Virus record (IMG/VR): IMGVR_UViG_3300040771_000271
Location: 85,236-129,922 of that record
Reading direction: 5' to 3' (one strand)
From: a virus
Length of the DNA stretch: 44,687 bases
Shown: positions 3,549 through 39,015 of the stretch, one piece after another
Numbering within the stretch: the first letter of the stretch is position 1
How the letters are laid out: each line of letters starts with the position of its first letter
Notes under the pieces: generated by a model
Databases searched by the model: none
What the model was told of the DNA's origin: nothing
Seen by the model: only the letters and a program-made list of their open reading frames with translations
Program-made: the position numbers and the translations under genes

Positions 3549-5575
3549 TTGTTTTTAAGTATTTTAGTCCAATAATCTACTGTTTCTTTTTTATCTCCTG
3601 AGTAAGATGTCCACTTACAAGGATAACGTTTAATACAATCATCTAAACGGGCTCTAACACTTAACTTTTTATTTGTCTCACGAGAGTAAGTAAGCCAACA
3701 TTCCCAAAAGCGATACATATCAACAGCTACAAAAGTTATGGCAATTTGATAACCAAAGAAAACAAAACTCCACATAGGACTCCATTCAAATCTATAGTTA
3801 TCTCTTTCCCATTTCGTTTTCCATCCAAGTTGAACAAAGTCAAAACCTATTTTTTTAGGTTGCGCAAAAGAACCCTTTAATTTCTGTTCATACAATTCAT
3901 CAAAAGTCCTAATTGTACGTTTATAAGTTTGCTCTCTTTCATTATACTCTCTAACTTCTTTAATTTCTTTTAAAGTAGCTTCTATAGCTTTTTTAGGAGT
4001 AGCTTTTTTCCATACACGAGGAAAGAAATAAGGTGTTCCTATGGCAACTTTACCAATATACACTATTGGAATTGGCGGTCTAAAAGGTGAGAAGTATACA
4101 GACATCCACTCAAAGTATCTTAAAAACCAATATAATTTTGAATATTTGTACTTAATCATTATATAATCTTTTTATATATTAAATCCCTTTCTTCCCAAGA
4201 ACTTTCTAAAAATTTTTTAGTTATTTCATCTAACATGCCTTGATGAACAAAGTCGAGACTATCATTTAAAGTATCTTCATTGTCTACAACTTTATATCCA
4301 CAGTCTTGTAGATGTTCAATCATTTCCTCATCTTCAATTTCGCCTAAAAAACTAAAAGAGTTTCTACGACTTAATTCCCAAACTAGATCATCTACAGAAG
4401 CATCTTCAACAGTATCACAGTTGTCAAGATGAATTAAATCTAAATGATACTTCGCATATTTTTCAAGAACATCTGTATCTACTTCATCTAGAAAATCACT
4501 TACATCAACAACTATTTCCACATGACCATCTTCAAGTTCTTCTACATTATCAAAAACTTGCTTACCAACCCATCTAATATCTTTCATAATCCTTCTATTT
4601 CTGATATAAAATCTCCAGAGTTTAGCCTCACTCTTTCTCTAATTAAATCAATAATCATATCTTGTGTAATTGTAAAAACATTTTCAATATCTCCTGCGTA
4701 TTCAAATTCTTCATCAGACCAAGTATTGTTATCTAAATAATATCTTATTTTAATTTCCATAATTTACATTATATTTATTTTTAATTCTATTAAATCACTT
4801 GGTTTTGCCACTCTATACTTCTTTACATTATGCCAAGTAAAAGTATAAGGACAATCATCCATAAATTCATACTCAATTTCAACCATAATATTAAAACCGA
4901 AGAGCCTCTTTTTAATATACCAATTTCCTGTTAATTTTACATCTGTCATAATTAATAACTTTCTAATACTATTGTTTTAAAATCACGTTCTCTTTGCTCT
5001 AACTTAGCTTGTTCTAAAGTATCAAATGTCCCTAAGTGAATACAACAGTTCTCTACAAGTTGACTTCCAACCTCTCCAACATAAGTTAATGGATTAAAAT
5101 ACTTTCTTTCCAATTGAAATAAACTATATCCCATCTTCATATATTTCGAGCAGTTCTTCCGTTGTTTTACATGTAGGTATTAAGTCTCGCGTCCTGTATT
5201 TTCCATCCGAATATGTTAAAGTATTTTCCGCAACAAAAACTGAAAAAGAAACTGCAAATTCCCTAACTATAAGAGAAGCAATAGTAACATCTGTTTCTGT
5301 ATTATCATCTGATAAATGTCCTAATAAACAATGTCTTAATTTGTCTTCTAATTTCATAATTTTTTTATTTTAATTTGATGATTAAAACTGTTTCCATTAC
5401 CACTAGCCATCAAAGAATAATTTTCTTCAAAGGCATTTGTAACTTCACAATAACCTCCGTCTTGTAAAGTGATTTCTACTAATTCTTCCATTTGATTTTC
5501 TAACCAATCATTTAAAGTGAAAGTATTATCATGATGATATTCTTTTGTCTCCCAATAAAAAGTACCTGTTTTCAT
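3539..5575 (-). other. Run of small hypothetical ORFs (3539-4159, 4159-4587, 4764-4949, 4952-5140, 5124-5357, 5354-5575)
   Basis: Tightly packed or overlapping minus-strand ORFs downstream of a TATATTTG promoter at ~5707-5714. No recognisable family. Confidence 0.65.
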
Positions 5576-5812: not shown

Positions 5813-6817
5813 CTATACATTATCAATAGGTATTGGGTTATTTTTTAACCAAGTCTCAAAATGCAATCTATTAAAATCATTATTTGATTTTATAAACTGA
5901 TTGTACTCACTTGGGAGGAGTTGTAAATTTGTATAATGATTTAACTTATAAATATCGTTTTCAGTTTTTGCTGAGCATAGGGGAATTATATGGTCTACAT
6001 CTATACCCTTAGAATTTATTAAAAATCCATAATTATTATCTTCTAAGTGTAATTTTAAATTTTCCCAAGATGTCCCTAAAATCTCTGAAGTCTTAGACGA
6101 TTTTTTATATCCCTTTGCTTTTATAAAACCTTTAACTCTTCTTCTAACATTATTACATAGATTATCTAATTCTTTTGGTATTTTTCTTAACTTTTTAGAT
6201 ATTACTTCGTTACCACATTTAGGGCAACCACAATAATAATGGACATTAACTATTTGACTAAATTTTCCGTGTATTGGGCATATAATACTAATAATATCAT
6301 CTGTTTTAGAGTCTTCCTCTATTTCATAAGTGTAAAAATCCCCATGTTTTTTAGTAAATAGATTTAAAATATGTACTTTACCAACTCTTCTACTTTTTCC
6401 TGCCTTTATTTTGCCACAATTAACACACCCACCTCCTTGTAGGTGTGTATTAACCAATTGTAAAAATTCTCCATGTATAGGACATATAATTGTGATTTTA
6501 TCGGAGTAATTTTTATATATGGTTTTATCATAGTTATAAAAATTATCATGTATTTTATGAGCTCTTTCTACTAAAAGCTCTTGTGTAAGAGTTAACCTAT
6601 TCTCTATACAAGATTTTTTTCCACATTCCCAGCAACCTCTTCCTAATTTACAATGCTTTTGATATTTTTGTTTAAATACTCCATGCTCTTTGCAGATTAT
6701 TTTTAAAGGGATAGTATAATTAATATATTCAAGTAAGCTATAATCATATTTATTTCCGTGTATAGCCTTGGATTCCTCTATAGCTATCTTTGTATTAATA
6801 ATCCGACTACTTCCCAT
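5813..6817 (-). CDS. Homing endonuclease: three DUF723-like Zn-binding repeats plus C-terminal HNH domain
   Basis: Repeats ICKEHG..GCWEC, ICPIHG..GCVNC and ICPIHG..GCPKC. C-terminal DVDHIIPL...LNHYTNLQLL...N..K. Confidence 0.8.
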   Translation of the reverse strand: MGSSRIINTKIAIEESKAIHGNKYDYSLLEYINYTIPLKIICKEHGVFKQKYQKHCKLGRGCWECGKKSCIENRLTLTQELLVERAHKIHDNFYNYDKTIYKNYSDKITIICPIHGEFLQLVNTHLQGGGCVNCGKIKAGKSRRVGKVHILNLFTKKHGDFYTYEIEEDSKTDDIISIICPIHGKFSQIVNVHYYCGCPKCGNEVISKKLRKIPKELDNLCNNVRRRVKGFIKAKGYKKSSKTSEILGTSWENLKLHLEDNNYGFLINSKGIDVDHIIPLCSAKTENDIYKLNHYTNLQLLPSEYNQFIKSNNDFNRLHFETWLKNNPIPIDNV

Positions 6818-28832: not shown

Positions 28833-29327
28833 TTAACTATATTTTGCATTGTTTAGTATAAAGTGTAAAGTCCCTTTAGAGGATATTTCAAAGTTTTCCA
28901 TTGTTTGTTTATAGCTTTTGCAATTTTTGTAAAAATCTTTTACTTCAGTAGCGTTGTACTTTCTCCATTTATCTGTAGCATTTAAAGAGTATTTTAATCT
29001 TTTTTCTGCTGGATTGTCATTTACATTTTCTTTTTGAGTACCTATTAAAATATTGTCCCAACTACAATCTGTTTTTATGTTATTTTTATGTCTTACAACT
29101 GTATTTTTTTCAAATATTCTTTCTCCATACTTTTGATAGGCTTGTAATCTGTGCCAAGATATCGGGAAAGGTTCTCCAAACACCCTAGTTGAGAATATTG
29201 GATACCCATCATTATTTAGTATTCTTAATTCTATTAAATTAAATGGGGTTTGTAGTTTTACACCACATGTACTTATCCTATATCCTAATTTGTATGCCTG
29301 TAATAAGGCTTCATTGCTTTTACTCAT
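28833..29327 (-). CDS. HNH endonuclease (HNH_3-like)
   Basis: GY...WHRL.AY...VVRHKNNIKTDCSWDNILIGTQKEN..D, with a C-terminal HTH-like tail. Confidence 0.82.
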   Translation of the reverse strand: MSKSNEALLQAYKLGYRISTCGVKLQTPFNLIELRILNNDGYPIFSTRVFGEPFPISWHRLQAYQKYGERIFEKNTVVRHKNNIKTDCSWDNILIGTQKENVNDNPAEKRLKYSLNATDKWRKYNATEVKDFYKNCKSYKQTMENFEISSKGTLHFILNNAKYS

Positions 29328-29340
29328 ATTTTAAAAATTT

Positions 29341-29490
29341 ACCGCGATTGTGCGGTCACTATATCATAGTCCGAGGTAGCGTGCTGTTATTCAAATGAAA
29401 ACAGCCTCGTTTCTTAAAACCTTGTAGCCTGACCTTTCAGGCAGTATATGTCGATATTAATTTCACGTGTCGTTACATAGTACAAGGTTT
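29341..29490 (-). ncRNA. Candidate structured RNA(s) upstream of the HNH gene
   Basis: AAACCTTGTA...TACAAGGTTT closing stem with internal GCCTGA-AAGG-TCAGGC. Further hairpins GCTGTT/AACAGC, ACTAT/ATAGT and ACCGC/GCGGT. Confidence 0.45.
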
Positions 29491-29496
29491 ATATTT

Positions 29497-29925
29497 TTAT
29501 TCTACTAAGTGCTGAAAAACTTCAACGATTTTTGTTTCAGAAACGGAGGGAATAGAAAAATCCATTGTTCCTTTCATAGTAATAACAGTATTTTCATAGG
29601 CTTGTTTAGCGTTGTTTGCTTGAACTAGTATATATACATTTTGTCTTTTTTCCTTTCCAGAATCTTCGTCAAAAAACAGTAGTGAAACTTTCGACTTAAA
29701 CCACTTATCAGTATCTTCAAAAGCAGTAATCTCTGAATAGTTGGTGAGTTTAATATTTACTACTTTAAAATCTTCTCCTACATAAATCTTCATTTGTTCA
29801 TTAATATTGCTTTCTGCTTCACTAAATGATAAAGCACTAACTATGTAACTTTCTGTCACTACTTTGTTAACTCCTTGCTCGTCTGTTTTTCTAAATTTTA
29901 CAGAACAATCGAAATATTTATTCAT
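29497..29925 (-). CDS. DUF4494-like protein (Bacteroidota)
   Basis: F.C.V......G..K.VTE.Y.V.ALSF.EAE...WFK.K....DE.SGKEK.....LVQA...ETKI..VF. Confidence 0.8.
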   Translation of the reverse strand: MNKYFDCSVKFRKTDEQGVNKVVTESYIVSALSFSEAESNINEQMKIYVGEDFKVVNIKLTNYSEITAFEDTDKWFKSKVSLLFFDEDSGKEKRQNVYILVQANNAKQAYENTVITMKGTMDFSIPSVSETKIVEVFQHLVE

Positions 29926-32262: not shown

Positions 32263-32838
32263 TGTTTTTTTCAGTTATTAATAAATACTTATATCCTTGT
32301 GCTCCGCTTTCTAATTCTATTTCTTTTATAGTTCCTTGAGCTACTAAGTTTTGAGTTTGTTCTAAATCTTTTTGCGCCAAAATATTGAGTGTGGCTTCAA
32401 GATAAATTAATTTTTCCATACCTATTTATTTTTGTTTTTTTTAACCCATTGCTCAAAATTTTCTTTTATAACTGTTTCGTTACGAGATATTGGCAACCTA
32501 TTACCAGCTTGAAAAGCTCTTTCTAAATCTTTTTCAGTATACATATTTATTAATTTTTTACAAATATATTACTTTTTCGGCGAGATAAAAAATAAAACAG
32601 TCTTTATTTACTTAAAAACTTTTCAATTAATAACTTCTCTTCACTAATAGACTGTAACCTACTATTAACATTACTTAAAAACAAACTATTAATATCTTCA
32701 AACATATTTAAACTCTCCTCTGTAGTTAAATCATTTAAAAGGTTATACAATATTGTTTCTTTCCTAGTCATTAACTCTCTTTCGTGATTTGACTGTTTTC
32801 TATTTTCTCTCCAACTTTTAATTCTTTGTGTCATAATT

Positions 32839-33099
32839 TTAAAATGGTATTGTATCAGCTTCAACTATTTCTAATTTATAGTCTATACTTTTTGTTAAAA
32901 ATTTTAATTTATTTATAGTTAGTTTTTGTCTTTGAATGTTATATACAATTGTCGCCTTAAAAACATAAAAAGGAATTTCTTTTAAACCGTAAGACCTATT
33001 ATCTTTTAAGTAAGGCAATTTATATAACTTTTTATCTTTCCATCCATAGTTTACATTTTTATATGTAAAACCGTATTTAAATTGTAATGTGGTAATCAT
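32839..33099 (-). CDS. Basic 86-aa hypothetical protein adjoining the attI-like end of the cassette array
   Basis: MITTLQFKYGFTYKNVNYGWKDKKLYKLPY...; starts 51 bp from the first GTTA core site. Confidence 0.7.
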   Translation of the reverse strand: MITTLQFKYGFTYKNVNYGWKDKKLYKLPYLKDNRSYGLKEIPFYVFKATIVYNIQRQKLTINKLKFLTKSIDYKLEIVEADTIPF

Positions 33100-33120
33100 A
33101 GGACTTTATTTTAGTGTTGA

Positions 33121-33163
33121 GTTACCACATTAGTTACGTGTATGCACAAGTTACGGCAAATAC
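33121..33163 (+). other. Putative attI-like primary recombination site
   Basis: gttaccacattagttacgtgtatgcacaa-GTTACGGCAAATAC. Core GTTA at 33150 with no upstream hairpin arm; extra GTTAC direct repeats at 33121 and 33133. Confidence 0.5.
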
Positions 33164-33561
33164 TATGTTTTGTTTTCATAAGTCAATTCAGTTCCTGTGA
33201 GTGCGAAATATAAATTTTGTAGCTGATGAACTGTTTTTATTTTAATAAACTCAAATGATTCAAACATAAATTCCTCTACATCCTCATTACACATATGAAT
33301 TTTTACATCTCCAAATTTAAAAGCTTTGCTCGCTTGTATTTCTTGTGGGTCAGAAGTAAAGTAGCTTTCTGCATTAAATTTGCGTAGCCATTCTTCTGTT
33401 AACGGTATTGGTTTAATATCTTCATATAAAATAATTACTCTACAAGGTCCAGAAGCAACTGCTCTTTTTTCTAATAACTCTAATATTTGTTCAGTTCTTG
33501 GTATTCCGCTTCCTAAGTCTAATCTTGAAATAAAATTCCCAATTCTTAATTCATTTTTCAT
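33163..33561 (-). CDS. Cassette 1 gene: conserved phage hypothetical (ELRIGN...PIPLTEEWL...VHQLQNLYFALTG.EL)
   Basis: ORF track; recurrent Bacteroidota-phage family motifs. Confidence 0.75.
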   Translation of the reverse strand: MKNELRIGNFISRLDLGSGIPRTEQILELLEKRAVASGPCRVIILYEDIKPIPLTEEWLRKFNAESYFTSDPQEIQASKAFKFGDVKIHMCNEDVEEFMFESFEFIKIKTVHQLQNLYFALTGTELTYENKT

Positions 33562-33592
33562 AACAATATTTTTAGTTTAATAATCCGTACTT

Positions 33593-33682
33593 GCCCTAAC
33601 ATACGCTTGTAGCTATATGCAGAAACTCCCTGCTTTTATTCACGATTGCGGTGGCATACAGCTACAAGCTTTTCCGTTAGTA
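33593..33682 (+). repeat. attC-like site 1
   Basis: GCCCTAAC-ATAC-GCTTGTAGCTATATGC...GCATACAGCTACAAGC-TTTTCC-GTTAGTA. Confidence 0.8.
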
Positions 33683-33688
33683 GCAATG

Positions 33689-33937
33689 TTAGAAACCCTG
33701 TTGACGAAGACGATATTCTTTACAAAGCCTACAATATTTATTAAGGAAAATATGACCACATTCTTTTTCTTCTATTTCTTTTTGACTATCTTCTACTTTT
33801 TCGACTACTTTGTAGGTTTCATAATCTAAATTTGTCTCTTTAACTATCTTATTTTTTAAGCTAAAAATAAACACAGCTACTAACAGCACATAAGCGCAAG
33901 CAATTAATTGGGTATTGAATTTAAATTTTGTTTTCAT
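33689..33937 (-). CDS. Cassette 2 gene: hypothetical protein starting inside attC-like site 2
   Basis: 82 aa. The hydrophobic ACAYVLLVAV segment is encoded by the attC arm; C-terminal CGH...C..C. Confidence 0.6.
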   Translation of the reverse strand: MKTKFKFNTQLIACAYVLLVAVFIFSLKNKIVKETNLDYETYKVVEKVEDSQKEIEEKECGHIFLNKYCRLCKEYRLRQQGF

Positions 33938-34013
33938 TTTGTTGTTATTTATAATTAATATAATTATTGTTTTTTGTCAGCAATTGCCTTCGCCTATGTG
34001 CGAAACGTTACCA
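33878..34013 (+). repeat. attC-like site 2
   Basis: TACTAAC-A-GCACATAAGCGCAAGCAATT...AATTGCCTTCGCCTATGTGC-GAAAC-GTTACCA, with an AT-rich loop. Confidence 0.8.
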
Positions 34014-34019
34014 GTAATG

Positions 34020-34244
34020 CTACAGTAGCGGTAAAATATAATCTGATTTATTGAAACATTCACTTATGAATTTCGCATGTCTTAACGCTTCTGATTTTTC
34101 TGTAGTATCAATTATTTCATTACTTGTAGTTAAATATGGTATTCTTGCTATTTTATATTTTGCACCTAAACTTGTGCCTATTATATTCCAAGCATTCTTT
34201 GATTCAGAATGAACAACCTTTGTATTTATATTTGGATTTTCCAT
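34020..34244 (-). CDS. Cassette 3 gene B: hypothetical protein
   Basis: 74 aa ORF; stop codon begins 13 nt after the G of the GTTA core. Confidence 0.7.
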   Translation of the reverse strand: MENPNINTKVVHSESKNAWNIIGTSLGAKYKIARIPYLTTSNEIIDTTEKSEALRHAKFISECFNKSDYILPLL

Positions 34245-34247
34245 AGT

Positions 34248-34544
34248 TTATTTAGTAACATCATTAAAAAAATCAGGATAAATATTTTTTATCATTTCTT
34301 CAGCATCATCTTGCATTTTAGTCCCTTTAACAGCAATCCATAAAGCATTTGATAAATAAGATAAATGATTAACACTGCCTCTTGTTAGTGGATTAATTAA
34401 ACTTTTAAATTCATAATTAAGATTGAACATTTTACCCTCTTTTGTCTTATTAAATTTTGATAGCCAATCATCATGAGAAACACTACTGGTAACACCTGCT
34501 ATACTCAATGCCTCGTTTTCGGTATTATTAACTTCTGTTTTCAT
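34248..34544 (-). CDS. Cassette 3 gene A: hypothetical protein starting inside attC-like site 3
   Basis: 98 aa. EALSIAGVTSS is encoded by the attC arm and TAAC box. Confidence 0.7.
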   Translation of the reverse strand: MKTEVNNTENEALSIAGVTSSVSHDDWLSKFNKTKEGKMFNLNYEFKSLINPLTRGSVNHLSYLSNALWIAVKGTKMQDDAEEMIKNIYPDFFNDVTK

Positions 34545-34615
34545 AAGTTCGTTTTTTTTAGTTAGAATAATTCGTTTTCATAAATCGGCACTAAGTATAG
34601 CACCATCCGTTAGGG
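34487..34615 (+). repeat. attC-like site 3
   Basis: TGGTAAC-ACC-TGCTATACTCAATGCC...GGCACTAAGTATAGCA-CCATCC-GTTAGGG. Confidence 0.8.
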
Positions 34616-34623
34616 ATAACCGC

Positions 34624-34905
34624 CTATTGGAGTAGATTAAAATTACCGATAGACTCTCTTACATCTTTGTAATATGCTTTTTTATCGTGATTTAAGCACC
34701 TTGCATTGTAAGAATCACTACCTTGTTTATTATGAAGTTCTTCTCCTAGTTCCGTGAGTGCTGAAACAACTTCATCCACTATCAAAAATGCTTTTCTTTT
34801 TAAATCTGTTTTAGCATAATTTGAACAATTTTCCCATAATGCTTTTGATATTTTACCGTTGTTGACTTTTTCTAAAATCTCTTTTGCTTTTTCTAAATGT
34901 GTCAT
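34624..34905 (-). CDS. Cassette 4 gene: hypothetical protein
   Basis: 93 aa ORF bounded by GTTAGGGATA and TATCCCTAAC. Confidence 0.7.
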   Translation of the reverse strand: MTHLEKAKEILEKVNNGKISKALWENCSNYAKTDLKRKAFLIVDEVVSALTELGEELHNKQGSDSYNARCLNHDKKAYYKDVRESIGNFNLLQ

Positions 34906-34940
34906 TTTTATAAATTTTGATTGATTAGTATTTCGTGGTA

Positions 34941-35027
34941 TATCCCTAACACACGATAAGGTCTATTTGCCGAATCTACCCGCCACAACCTATAACAGCT
35001 AGTAGCAAGGCTACGATTACGTTATTT
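34941..35027 (+). repeat. Degenerate attC-like site 4
   Basis: TATCCCTAAC box is present but lacks a matching right arm. A second CCTATAAC box, a short GTAGC/GCTAC hairpin and GTTA follow. Confidence 0.5.
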
Positions 35028-35431
35028 ATGATATTTAGATTTTGGTTTTTCAAAGTAATTTCCATTTTTATCAGTAATAGTAATCAATGGCTCTATAACT
35101 TCATTTTTAAGCAACCATTCACTTCTCATTACATCTTTAATTTCGTGATTATTAGTCACTATTTCTATTCCTCTTTCTATTTCTTGCATTGATTTTGCTA
35201 TTTGCGCTCCCATAGGAATATCTGCGCCTACAATTAATACTTTTTTCATTCTTATCTTTTATAAAATTTTATAAAATGTTTCTCCCTCTAAAATAATTTC
35301 TTCAATAATATTTCTGTTTATTAAATTGTAAGTGTCTATTTGAATTCTCCAAAACCAACAGGCTTTATCTGTTGATAGTGTTTTACCTTTATAGTTTTTT
35401 AAGGTGTTTATAACCTCTTGAATATCCATAA

Positions 35432-35860
35432 TTATAATGTAATTTCATAACCTATCATAGCTGAATTTGCACTATCATAAGAGAATATAAATTTTTTATA
35501 TTGGACTTGCACCCCTACACTTCTATAAATATTTTGAGCTTCTTTTTTGCCGTTTATATTTTGTTCAAAATAAGTTGCACCTAATTTACCTGTAATTGTA
35601 ATATCTTCAAAAGTAGCTCCAATTAAGAAAAACAGTGAAGGTGTTAGTTTGTCTTTTGCAATATGTTTATTTGGATGATCCATTCTTGTAGCTCTTTTAG
35701 CAACTTCTTTTGCGTCAGTTATAGAAACAGCAACTCCGTAATTTAAATCTCCCTTCATTTTAAAGTTTACTTCAAATGATTTGTAACCTACTAAGGTTGA
35801 TACTGTATTTTGACTATACCCTAATAAAGGGAATAATAATATTATAATTAATTTTTTCAT
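35432..35860 (-). CDS. Secreted or outer-membrane beta-strand-rich protein
   Basis: Bacteroidota-type signal peptide MKKLIIILLFPLLGYSQ; alternating amphipathic strands; C-terminal IGYEITL. Confidence 0.55.
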   Translation of the reverse strand: MKKLIIILLFPLLGYSQNTVSTLVGYKSFEVNFKMKGDLNYGVAVSITDAKEVAKRATRMDHPNKHIAKDKLTPSLFFLIGATFEDITITGKLGATYFEQNINGKKEAQNIYRSVGVQVQYKKFIFSYDSANSAMIGYEITL

Positions 35861-37629: not shown

Positions 37630-39015
37630 CTAGTTATTATAGTTTTCTAATTCTTTTTTGTTGCACTTGTCAAAACCATAGTATTCGAGAAATAAATTTT
37701 GATTTAATTATTTTGGAAAGAAATCTTCTAACCAATTATTTTTTCTAGCCCATCCAAAAGCTCCGCTCGAACCTATTTTAAATTTAAACCTATTTGTGTA
37801 TTTTTTTGCCTCTGTTTTACAATTCTCGTAATTCCAATAATTTCTTGATTTTCTAGTATCTATCATATGTGAACAAATTTCCTCCGCCCATCCTTTTGCA
37901 AAGGCTTTGCTGTAAATACTATTAGCTTCTTTTATAAATTGAGAACGTAAAGAGTATTTTAATGCTTTTTCATGGCATCTTTCTTTAGTCCAATAATTGT
38001 TAAGTTTTTTAAGTTCAACCATATGAGAACATACCAAACCTATCCATTTATTTTTTAAACACGCATTATAAGCATTTTCATTGTTTAAAATAAATTCTTT
38101 TTTAGTAGTATATTTTAACGCCTCTAATCTACATATTTCAAAAGTCCATTTTATTTTTCCTCCTCCTAATCCCCCTGCTTTATTTTTATTAAGGATGCAC
38201 TTACCTAATTTTTTATATTCTTCGACTATTAAATCCTCCAATTCGGAAGCGTCCTCTTTTGAATAAAGTGTATCACTGATTAACTCAAAAACAGGTTTAC
38301 TGTTAGTTTCTAACATATGTTTATAAACTGAACTTTTTTCATCTGATAAATGGCTATTAAACCTCTTTTCAGGATTACACGTTAAACCAATATAAACACA
38401 ATCATCATAAAAAATTGCCTTATAAATATACCTTTTTTGTATATTACCTAAAGGAATCATATGACTACATATTTCTTCAAGCCATCCACTTCTATGTGCA
38501 ACAACATAAGCAGAAGGGTTGTTTTCTTGAAAATCTTTCTTGTGTTTATACTTACTTGCTTCTTTCGCACAATTTTCTTTGTTCCAATACCTATTAGGTT
38601 TTCTACCTTCAACCATATGAGAACAAATCTCATTTAACCATCCTTTTTTATGAGCTATCCTATAAGCTTGTCCACAAGATTTTAAAAAGTCGATTTTTCT
38701 AGTGTATTTTATAGATTCCTGTTTACATAATTCTAAAGTCCATTCAAATTTTACCATTTTACAATTAGTTTTATTAATATGGGTAAATATAATAAAACTT
38801 TTTTATATATGAAAACTAATTAATTTATATTAAATAATTTTTTATGTTGTTGCACTGTAATACCCGTAAACACTCATTTCATTTGTTAAATGGTTATAAC
38901 TCGCAACTCTTGACTCATAACTGACTAAATCCGAGTAATGGTCGCCTTCACTATTTACGTATTCGTTTACGTGGTGTTTTGCTGTATTGTTTAAATAAAA
39001 TGTTTTATGTGTCAT
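37630..39015 (-). pseudogene. Small phage gene apparently split by the GIY-YIG insertion
   Basis: 5' part 39015-38842 MTHKTFY...LVSYESRVA...YGYYSATT*. 3' part ~37698-37630 NLFLEYYGFDKCNKKELENYNN* has no start codon. Confidence 0.55.
37708..38757 (-). CDS. GIY-YIG homing endonuclease with five tandem ~50-aa repeats
   Basis: YIY...VYIGLT.NPEKRF..H...E...LN. Repeats W..E.C..EA.KY....F......AY..A...GW...IC.HM, two before and three after the nuclease domain. Confidence 0.85.
   Translation of the reverse strand: MVKFEWTLELCKQESIKYTRKIDFLKSCGQAYRIAHKKGWLNEICSHMVEGRKPNRYWNKENCAKEASKYKHKKDFQENNPSAYVVAHRSGWLEEICSHMIPLGNIQKRYIYKAIFYDDCVYIGLTCNPEKRFNSHLSDEKSSVYKHMLETNSKPVFELISDTLYSKEDASELEDLIVEEYKKLGKCILNKNKAGGLGGGKIKWTFEICRLEALKYTTKKEFILNNENAYNACLKNKWIGLVCSHMVELKKLNNYWTKERCHEKALKYSLRSQFIKEANSIYSKAFAKGWAEEICSHMIDTRKSRNYWNYENCKTEAKKYTNRFKFKIGSSGAFGWARKNNWLEDFFPK

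Follow-up and report, generated by a model that had tools for sequence, protein, structure and literature searches.

Integrons are the textbook means of gene capture in bacteria, although how their cassettes are built and why the captured genes face one way are open questions. In phages of the T4 type, 'mobile regulatory cassettes' known as PeSLs, which carry a promoter and a terminator and are recombined by homology, flank small accessory genes. Clusters of attC sites lacking integrases (CALINs) have been reported in virulent phages, including Polaribacter phage P12002L, the sites being detected with IntegronFinder and HattCI and tested with IntI1 (Qi et al. 2023, PMC9892861). In the integrons with an inverted integrase ('reverse' integrons) of Treponema and others, the recombinase and cassette genes are co-directional (as described in PMC4889954 and generally understood). 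The subject of the present analysis is a window of 44,687 nucleotides from the IMG/VR virus record IMGVR_UViG_3300040771_000271, corresponding to the minus strand of positions 5790-50476 in the 98.5-kb record analysed, on which an earlier note had remarked that stop codons lie at a near-fixed distance from a putative crossover core. Positions 33100-35010 are explained here, taking the explanation as a whole and with rather good confidence, as an integron-like array, made up of four gene cassettes and a decayed site, in a crAss-like phage whose host belongs to the Bacteroidota. Virulent phages would use this kind of site with reversed genes and a simpler recombinase, and the site offers precise, testable features in its 13-nt box, covarying triplet and fixed G.T position.

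The array and its relatives share with integrons, especially sedentary chromosomal ones and CALINs, mostly single-gene cassettes set between imperfect palindromes, TAAC and GTTA cores, conservation of structure rather than sequence, cassette ends that would pair when circularised, a preference for one strand in folding, stop codons lying at the inverse core or within it, and, in six relatives, a hairpin-less site beside a tyrosine recombinase of the Xer/IntI branch that is transcribed away from the array. Unlike in integrons, the recombinases of the phage relatives are 266-280 aa long, below the cut-off for the integron integrase IntI (in the one scored) and without positions ~184-243 of the IntI model; the boxes are 13 nt long and contain a triplet that covaries and a G.T position that is fixed, and the spacers measure 5 versus 1-2 nt; the phage genes face the attI-like site, so that no promoter of the cassette-promoter (Pc) type can serve them; many phage loops carry the start of the next gene; and the window is without any recombinase. 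Reverse integrons have their integrase upstream and the canonical relation of cassette to attC, whereas here the recombinase of the relatives lies downstream and the genes are flipped with respect to the site. As with PeSLs, stem-loops lie on either side of small accessory genes, in a part of the phage genome that is plastic, and would mediate their shuffling, but here there are core boxes, box covariation and, in relatives, a dedicated tyrosine recombinase.

A close precedent is the P12002L cluster. Its attC1 (NC_028924 30005-30056, minus strand) belongs to the present site family, reading TGC-TAAC-G, spacer, stem and GTTA, and follows a methyltransferase gene on the same strand; two further family sites flank gp53 and gp54, likewise after same-strand genes. 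Methylases are a recurrent cargo of the present arrays too. PMC9892861 describes no Xer-like recombinase, extended boxes, gene-orientation rule or stop spacing. Literature searches for an Xer-like platform, inverted phage cassettes or the box rule retrieved no description, and the system as a whole represents a variation on the integron principle that had not been described.

Each gene of the array lies between a stop-proximal (TAAC) box and a start-proximal (GTTA) box, the latter belonging to the hairpin upstream of the gene. The features are, in window coordinates:

32839..33099, minus strand: gene of 86 aa, rich in Lys and Tyr, occupying the position of the recombinase in relatives
33100..33149, minus strand: attI-like array end without a hairpin, with two extra GTAAC repeats, then CACTAAAATAAAG directly before the ATG of the next gene
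33150..33162, minus strand: lone stop-proximal box, on the gene strand TATTTGCCGTAAC, the first core of the earlier note
33163..33561, minus strand: cassette 1 gene, 132 aa, phrog_10066, function unknown
33597..33679, minus strand: hairpin 2, 83 nt, on the gene strand TAAC-GGAAAA-16 bp stem-loop-stem-GTAT-GTTA
33588-33600 and 33676-33688: boxes of hairpin 2, start-proximal and stop-proximal (cassette 2) respectively
33689..33937, minus strand: cassette 2 gene, encoding 82 aa with a hydrophobic N-terminus and starting (ATG at 33937) within the hairpin 3 loop
33881..34010, minus strand: hairpin 3, 130 nt, boxes 33872-33884 and 34007-34019
34020..34544, minus strand: cassette 3 with two genes, 34020-34244 (74 aa, phrog_38014) and 34248-34544 (98 aa, ATG within the hairpin 4 loop)
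34490..34612, minus strand: hairpin 4, 123 nt, boxes 34481-34493 and 34609-34621
34624..34905, minus strand: cassette 4 gene, 93 aa
34939..35010, minus strand: decayed hairpin 5, weak stem

A relative with a 60%-identical exonuclease, L001, carries about ten such sites at the same genomic place, and the strict search pattern derived from it retrieved 24 IMG/VR contigs, of which 23 share the architecture while their stems are unrelated. A scanner set to accept only TAAC and GTTA separated by a spacer, a stem with 10 or more of 12 positions paired and a second spacer gave 269 raw hits, against 40 in mononucleotide shuffles, and a set of 106 unique oriented elements on 25 viral contigs; an energy-based search for TAAC...GTTA hairpins had returned mostly noise and missed real sites. 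On the gene strand, the site consists of ATTGC-NNN-TAAC, a G with about 4 unpaired nt, a stem of 12-22 bp, a variable loop, 1-2 unpaired nt and GTTA-NNN-GCAGT, and its two spacers are asymmetric, with 5 nt next to TAAC and 1-2 nt next to GTTA. Logos of 82 elements not chosen by pattern read A-T-T-(G/A)-C-NNN-TAAC-G on the stop side, with T-A-R enriched at -12 to -10, and T-GTTA-NNN-G-(C/T)-(A/T)-G-T on the start side. Across the unrelated sequences of the extended stems, paired positions comprise 1574 Watson-Crick, 178 G.T and 182 other combinations. The elements fall into length classes of about 48, 70, 88 and 126 nt, and in the longest, to which hairpins 3 and 4 of the window belong, the loop and 3' arm contain the ATG and first 15-17 codons of the next gene; the cassette 2 gene has its start codon and its codons up to the 15th in the loop of hairpin 3 and continues into the 3' arm from codon 16. 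These are imperfect palindromes with TAAC/GTTA cores, a conserved fold and variable sequence and length, as in attC, with a box length and spacers unlike those of the classical attC.

Boxes are complementary across genes. The variable triplet of the stop-side box of each gene is fully complementary to that of the start-side box on the other side of the same gene in 63 of 80 consecutive pairs, against 4 of 80 for the two triplets of a single hairpin; the permutation mean is 7.8, and none of 10,000 permutations reaches 63. In the window, boxes are complementary between hairpins 5 and 4 (GTTAGGGA / TCCCTAAC), 4 and 3 (GTTACCAG / CTGGTAAC), and 3 and 2 (GTTAGTAG / CTACTAAC), and between hairpin 2 and the lone box imperfectly, with one mismatch; 7 of the 9 positions outside the 4-nt core are complementary between box 33150-33162 and the start-proximal box of hairpin 2. 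The decayed site retains an intact start-proximal box, GTTAGGGATATAC (34939-34951), complementary to box 34609-34621, and a mutated stop-proximal box with TAGC (34998-35010). As the flanking boxes are complementary across the gene, each gene makes up a single unit together with its two half-boxes, and the ends of this unit would pair in a circle, as in integron cassettes; on this ground these are real cassettes. The start-side box systematically carries a G where the strict complement would be A, giving a G.T pair on the gene strand. Complementary lone boxes at both array ends (15 of 20 downstream, 8 of 17 upstream) were set aside, as lone boxes are indistinguishable from missed hairpins, and a relaxed stem score for lone boxes did not rise above background (mean 7.4 of 9).

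The orientation of genes relative to the site differs between phages and bacteria. Among the 106 viral elements, 90 open reading frames (ORFs) of at least 50 aa on the same strand stop at the TAACG box and none on the opposite strand stops at the GTTA box; the corresponding counts for bacterial elements (29, at 11 loci) are 4 and 16 (Fisher p = 7e-16), and three of the four same-strand bacterial cases lie on one 1.8-kb contig of a metagenome-assembled genome (MAG) that is possibly a phage. The bacterial loci derive from a scan of species-representative genomes, in which the scanner reduced 39 pattern hits to 8 real loci, 7 of them labelled Bacteroidota, and from a second search that added three. 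The Bacteroidota carriers are Maribacter, Paenimyroides, Pedobacter and MAGs, and their cassettes encode a GNAT acetyltransferase, an AraC/DJ-1 regulator, PhzF and DUF5063. In that second search, the strict pattern gave 12 hits in 401 Bacteroidota genomes against 9 in a reversed control, mostly chance, the three loci added being the real ones. These counts support the contention of the earlier note that the cassettes follow a common rule with genes inverted. Integron cassette genes are promoterless, point away from attI and are read from Pc, whereas the genes of viral arrays all face the attI-like end; by the polarity of the site they would be inverted with respect to bacterial cassettes, and thereby co-directional with the phage genome and the recombinase gene. 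Orientation is thus separable from the site, so it may follow the transcription or replication of the replicon rather than chemistry.

The strand on which the site folds can be approached through mispairs in elements selected on Watson-Crick pairs alone, an A.C combination on one strand being a G.T on the other. On the TAACG strand, G.T exceeds A.C by 150 to 41 in viral elements and by 38 to 14 in bacterial ones. Because this is the sense strand in phages but the antisense strand in bacteria, the G.T bias follows the site and not the mRNA. The TAACG strand would therefore fold as single-stranded DNA, like the bottom strand of attC. IntI cleaves the 5' box of the folded attC bottom strand, and by analogy the exchange point in phages would be the stop-proximal box.

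Six of the relatives retrieved encode tyrosine recombinases with 34-55% mutual identity, each gene directly following the array on the strand of the cassette genes. In all six, a stop-side box without a hairpin stands 40-65 nt before the recombinase ATG, and motifs common to several of these recombinase-side ends are ATATATGTA and AATAAAATCAATACT. The two recombinases scanned against Pfam match Phage_integrase and a SAM-like N-terminal domain. The one scanned against NCBIfam (L030) has XerA and 'integron integrase' as its best matches, with 124 bits in two stretches for TIGR02249, the cut-off of which is 265. The phage enzyme has two bacterial homologues, which align with the IntI model at positions 2-183 and 244-315 (G031) and 30-179 and 242-313 (G028), so that positions ~184-243, which we take to be the IntI-specific insert, are missing from both. 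Neither the record nor the one relative scored contains an IntI with the IntI-specific domain, and no match to the canonical model TIGR02249 exceeded the cut-off in five site-bearing bacterial genomes. Searching cultured phages with one of the recombinases by tblastn returned only integrases of 33-38% identity, such as that of Polaribacter phage Leef_1. A small Xer-like tyrosine recombinase without the IntI-specific insert would exchange strands mainly at the stop-proximal box, which would also join the array to a hairpin-less, attI-like site. In a Bacteroidota MAG (L077, G031:C103:346-2777), a cassette in the canonical orientation has upstream of it, and reading in the same direction, the gene for a 382-aa homologue of the phage recombinase; this is a single example, with a geometry unlike that of the phage platform.

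Arrays without a recombinase end in the same way, with TAAC followed by T rather than the hairpin-type G: this is so at 33150-33162 of the window and in L001, L020, L021, L022, L027 and L029, and such ends likewise lack a hairpin and have a AATAAAATCAATACT-like motif 5' of the ATG. Where the six relatives have a hairpin-less box by a recombinase, the window has its lone box followed by the unrelated 86-aa gene. The product of this gene has no similarity to the recombinases of the relatives; the same gene, at 75% nucleotide identity, lies 3' of the array end in L021 (6565-6814), an unrelated viral contig of 81 kb. Four hairpins or boxes and a decayed site lie at 33150-35010 of a record that has no tyrosine recombinase, which gives the window the composition of a CALIN, the sites being attC-like only.

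Comparisons between arrays and with metagenomes bear on where exchange occurs. Of the blocks of homology between arrays, 37 have their start at TAAC and 8 at GTTA. The methylase cassettes of L007, L016 and L029 are similar from TAAC to TAAC, with upstream hairpins 94-97% identical and downstream hairpins at background. Cassette 1 and hairpin 2 occur together at ~95% identity, with other flanks, in four metagenome runs of wastewater or aquatic origin that belong to four studies, the matches to cassette 1 starting at 33150, 33155 or 33167 and ending at 33669-33679, with other spacers, boxes and neighbours beyond. Pieces of hairpin 2 are 100% identical in other metagenomes, again diverging beyond 33669-33679. 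Nearly all of the window stretch was found in only one run, an ice metagenome that is probably its source, window parts uncovered in the runs being no evidence of absence. The stop-proximal box is accordingly preferred, with moderate confidence, as the main cassette boundary. This is the box at which the earlier note had placed its crossover core, and the finding of the same core without a hairpin at the array end before the recombinase in six relatives upholds the placement; the start-proximal box exchanges too, however, and is treated here, from the shared sequences, as a second junction, so that the stop-proximal core is probably not the sole exchange point.

The ~95% identity of cassette 1 in wastewater and aquatic metagenomes of four studies, set against the ice metagenome, implies that cassettes move between phages on short time scales. 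The commonest cargo in the arrays retrieved is an N6/N4 DNA methylase of ~265 aa (PF01555; L017:7533-8342 and homologues in L007, L016, L021, L023 and L029), the last codons of which run through the box to stop at the TAA of TAAC; this recurrence points to anti-restriction traffic. The cassette 1 protein has at least 529 homologues in IMG/VR, of which about 6 of the 80 fetched lie near sites, most being outside arrays.

The spacing of stop codons was the starting point of the earlier note. The G of GTTA stands at 33150, 33676, 34007 and 34609 and the minus-strand stop codons (CTA or TTA on the plus strand) start at 33163, 33689, 34020 and 34624, so that direct reading of the sequence confirms the distances of 13, 13, 13 and 15 nt that had been given. 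They were correctly ascribed to the last gene of each cassette, since cassette 3 holds a second ORF (34248-34544) upstream, and the similar tails that had been noticed (GCAAATA, GCAATG, GTAATG) are real, being the reverse complement of the conserved ATTGC part of the 13-nt box. To these can be added the fifth, decayed site, with core GCTA at 34998, where a CTA 13 nt further on is out of frame and the true stop lies at 35022. The spacing is far from chance: TAAC lies 9 nt after the stop in 0.7% of 146 other ORFs of the same record, and the probability of at least three of five sites having the 9-nt spacing is 3e-6.

In a wider census, a same-strand ORF of at least 40 aa ending no more than 200 nt upstream of TAAC was found for 104 of the 106 elements. 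The gap from stop to TAAC is:

-3 nt in 25 elements, the TAA of TAAC itself being the stop
4 nt in 6 elements, with TGA or TAG within the ATTGC position
7-8 nt in 13 elements, the stop touching or overlapping the box
9 nt in 24 elements, the stop lying immediately 5' of the box
10-14 nt in 11 elements

In all, 77% of gaps lie between -3 and 14 nt, gaps of 4, 7, 8 and 10 nt together account for 23 elements, and a tail extends to 166 nt; on the opposite strand, any ORF was found for only 22 of the 106 elements, with no favoured distance. Widening the comparison to more phage arrays and to bacterial cassettes, as the earlier note had proposed, thus gave narrow distances and a uniform viral orientation, in its favour. 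Its near-fixed distance should be restated as a narrow but not fixed one, with two peaks, at -3 and 9 nt. Both the distance and the similar tail arise because the reading frame ends before, in, or with the TAA of the 13-nt box. Stops of bacterial cassette genes lie -3 to 15 nt from their box, which is the other one; as these cassettes pack their stops equally tightly against the other box, the spacing reflects the compaction of cassettes against a box that they need and tells little about their creation, contrary to what had been suggested. Tight spacing would reflect selection for compact cassettes against an obligatory box, rather than a trace of cassette birth, and by itself the spacing is an explained consequence of compaction.

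A more ambitious scheme, possible but rather doubtful, is that phages and their Bacteroidota hosts share one folding-site family that they load with genes in opposite directions, both boxes exchanging, so that phage arrays would shuffle not only whole genes but also 'leader' hairpins with a start codon and the first 15-17 codons, while the box provides the stop codon of about a quarter of genes. If true, the site would be a device that assembles and terminates reading frames besides moving them, and the stop-codon rule would be part of how new cassettes become expressible.

Several observations weigh against the array being the mobile, integron-like structure proposed, or against parts of that explanation. 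Neither a PF00589 match nor a remnant of the recombinase by tblastn was found in the record itself, which is an estimated ~70% complete, and no recombinase was found in L001, a complete relative; with both lacking one, cassette activity in this phage is unproven. No circular cassette or excision product was seen, and no insertion at the attI-like site was observed. In the only published assay on a member of this family (PMC9892861), P12002L attC1 was the one site without verified IntI1 junctions, which fits a different enzyme but is not positive evidence for one. Hairpins alone are shared between arrays, with 34 block ends lying 0-44 nt past GTTA. Metagenome runs X3 and X5 each contain one contig in which hairpin 2 is connected with the cassette 4 leader (34906-34943) through a shared GTTAGGG, and metagenome contigs contain the arms of hairpin 4 with the match ending at 34490, followed by other gene bodies. 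Evidence that a gene is linked to the hairpin upstream of it comes mostly from one methylase family. Finally, the bacterial sample is small, with several loci on MAG contigs that are possibly prophage, and the scanner, in requiring TAAC/GTTA cores and spacer asymmetry, misses odd members.

Such junctions at the GTTA box, seen in metagenome contigs and in comparisons between arrays (one contig jumps from 34943 back to 33594 across 8 letters common to both places, besides those joining hairpin 4 to other gene bodies), are what would be expected of a canonical layout. The true crossover would then be the GTTA box by the start of the next gene, like R', each hairpin would belong to the preceding gene, the genes would not be inverted, and the earlier note would have misread R''. 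The order on the gene strand of gene, TAAC, hairpin and GTTA does resemble ORF-R''...R', and this was the first reading of the locus; it was dropped as array ends, recombinase positions and bacterial arrays contradict it. The last gene of an array ends in a hairpin-less box beside the recombinase, bacterial copies of the same sites carry genes on the other strand, and genes travel with their upstream hairpin, as in cassette 1 and the methylase cassettes. Furthermore, ~45% of hairpin loops hold the start codon of the next gene, with a variable frame through GTTA, so that excision there would split genes. A canonical layout is therefore considered unlikely.

Much less credible is that the hairpins are transcription or RNA signals, whether terminators, stabilisers or translation controls, with no DNA recombination involved. 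Their intergenic position, the G.U-compatible pairs on the phage mRNA strand and the start codons in loops, which could couple folding to translation, would suit such a role. However, the stems are not followed by a T-run, the strand bias is the same in bacterial arrays where that strand is antisense, and the complementarity of boxes across each gene, the recombinase at array ends and the occurrence of identical hairpins and cassettes in unrelated flanks would be left without a reason. Equally improbable are self-transposing palindromic repeats that land just after genes, akin to miniature inverted-repeat transposable elements or repetitive extragenic palindromes: hairpins alone are ~90% identical between arrays with unrelated flanks (hairpin 4, for instance, is 89% identical to a hairpin of L017), but inserting a palindrome would not make the boxes flanking a gene complementary, and hairpin-less terminal boxes by a tyrosine recombinase and the uniform polarity of arrays would be unexplained.

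As for the setting of the proposed cassette array, the window has a G+C content of ~29% and carries every gene on the minus strand, including genes for DNA polymerase, DnaB, ribonucleotide reductase, RNA ligase and an exonuclease as well as genes resembling those for homing endonucleases. Promoters of the Bacteroidota type (TTG...TAnnTTTG) are present in many intergenic regions. The five successive gaps at 33100-35021 have a G+C content of 0.29-0.39, above most other gaps of the window, and a blastn search of 32500-35500 against cultured phages gave zero matches. Between the start-side box of short hairpins and the ATG, a motif ..AGTACGG / GCGG-TTTAATTAAAC.. recurs (L001:1812-1850, 2318-2350 and 4827-4862; window 33561-33596), which may, from its sequence, be a promoter or other protein-binding site; a GCGGTTTAATTAAAC-like motif 3' of the start-side box is a candidate promoter.

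Elsewhere in the window, the replication module includes an HNH endonuclease-like gene (5813-6817) and a gene with a weak match to GIY-YIG homing endonucleases (37708-38757), and an intergenic region of 170 nt (29325-29499, G+C 0.36) contains several hairpins, with a folding energy of about -28 kcal/mol as DNA, that are unlike the cassette sites. Outside the window, positions 1-1218 of the record contain two more hairpins that are built in the same way but read on the opposite strand, one truncated by the end of the contig and the other with CAAC replacing TAAC. In the stretch that separates them, start codons of the reverse strand (CAT) hint at small genes on that strand, and these hairpins may constitute a second mini-array in the opposite orientation.

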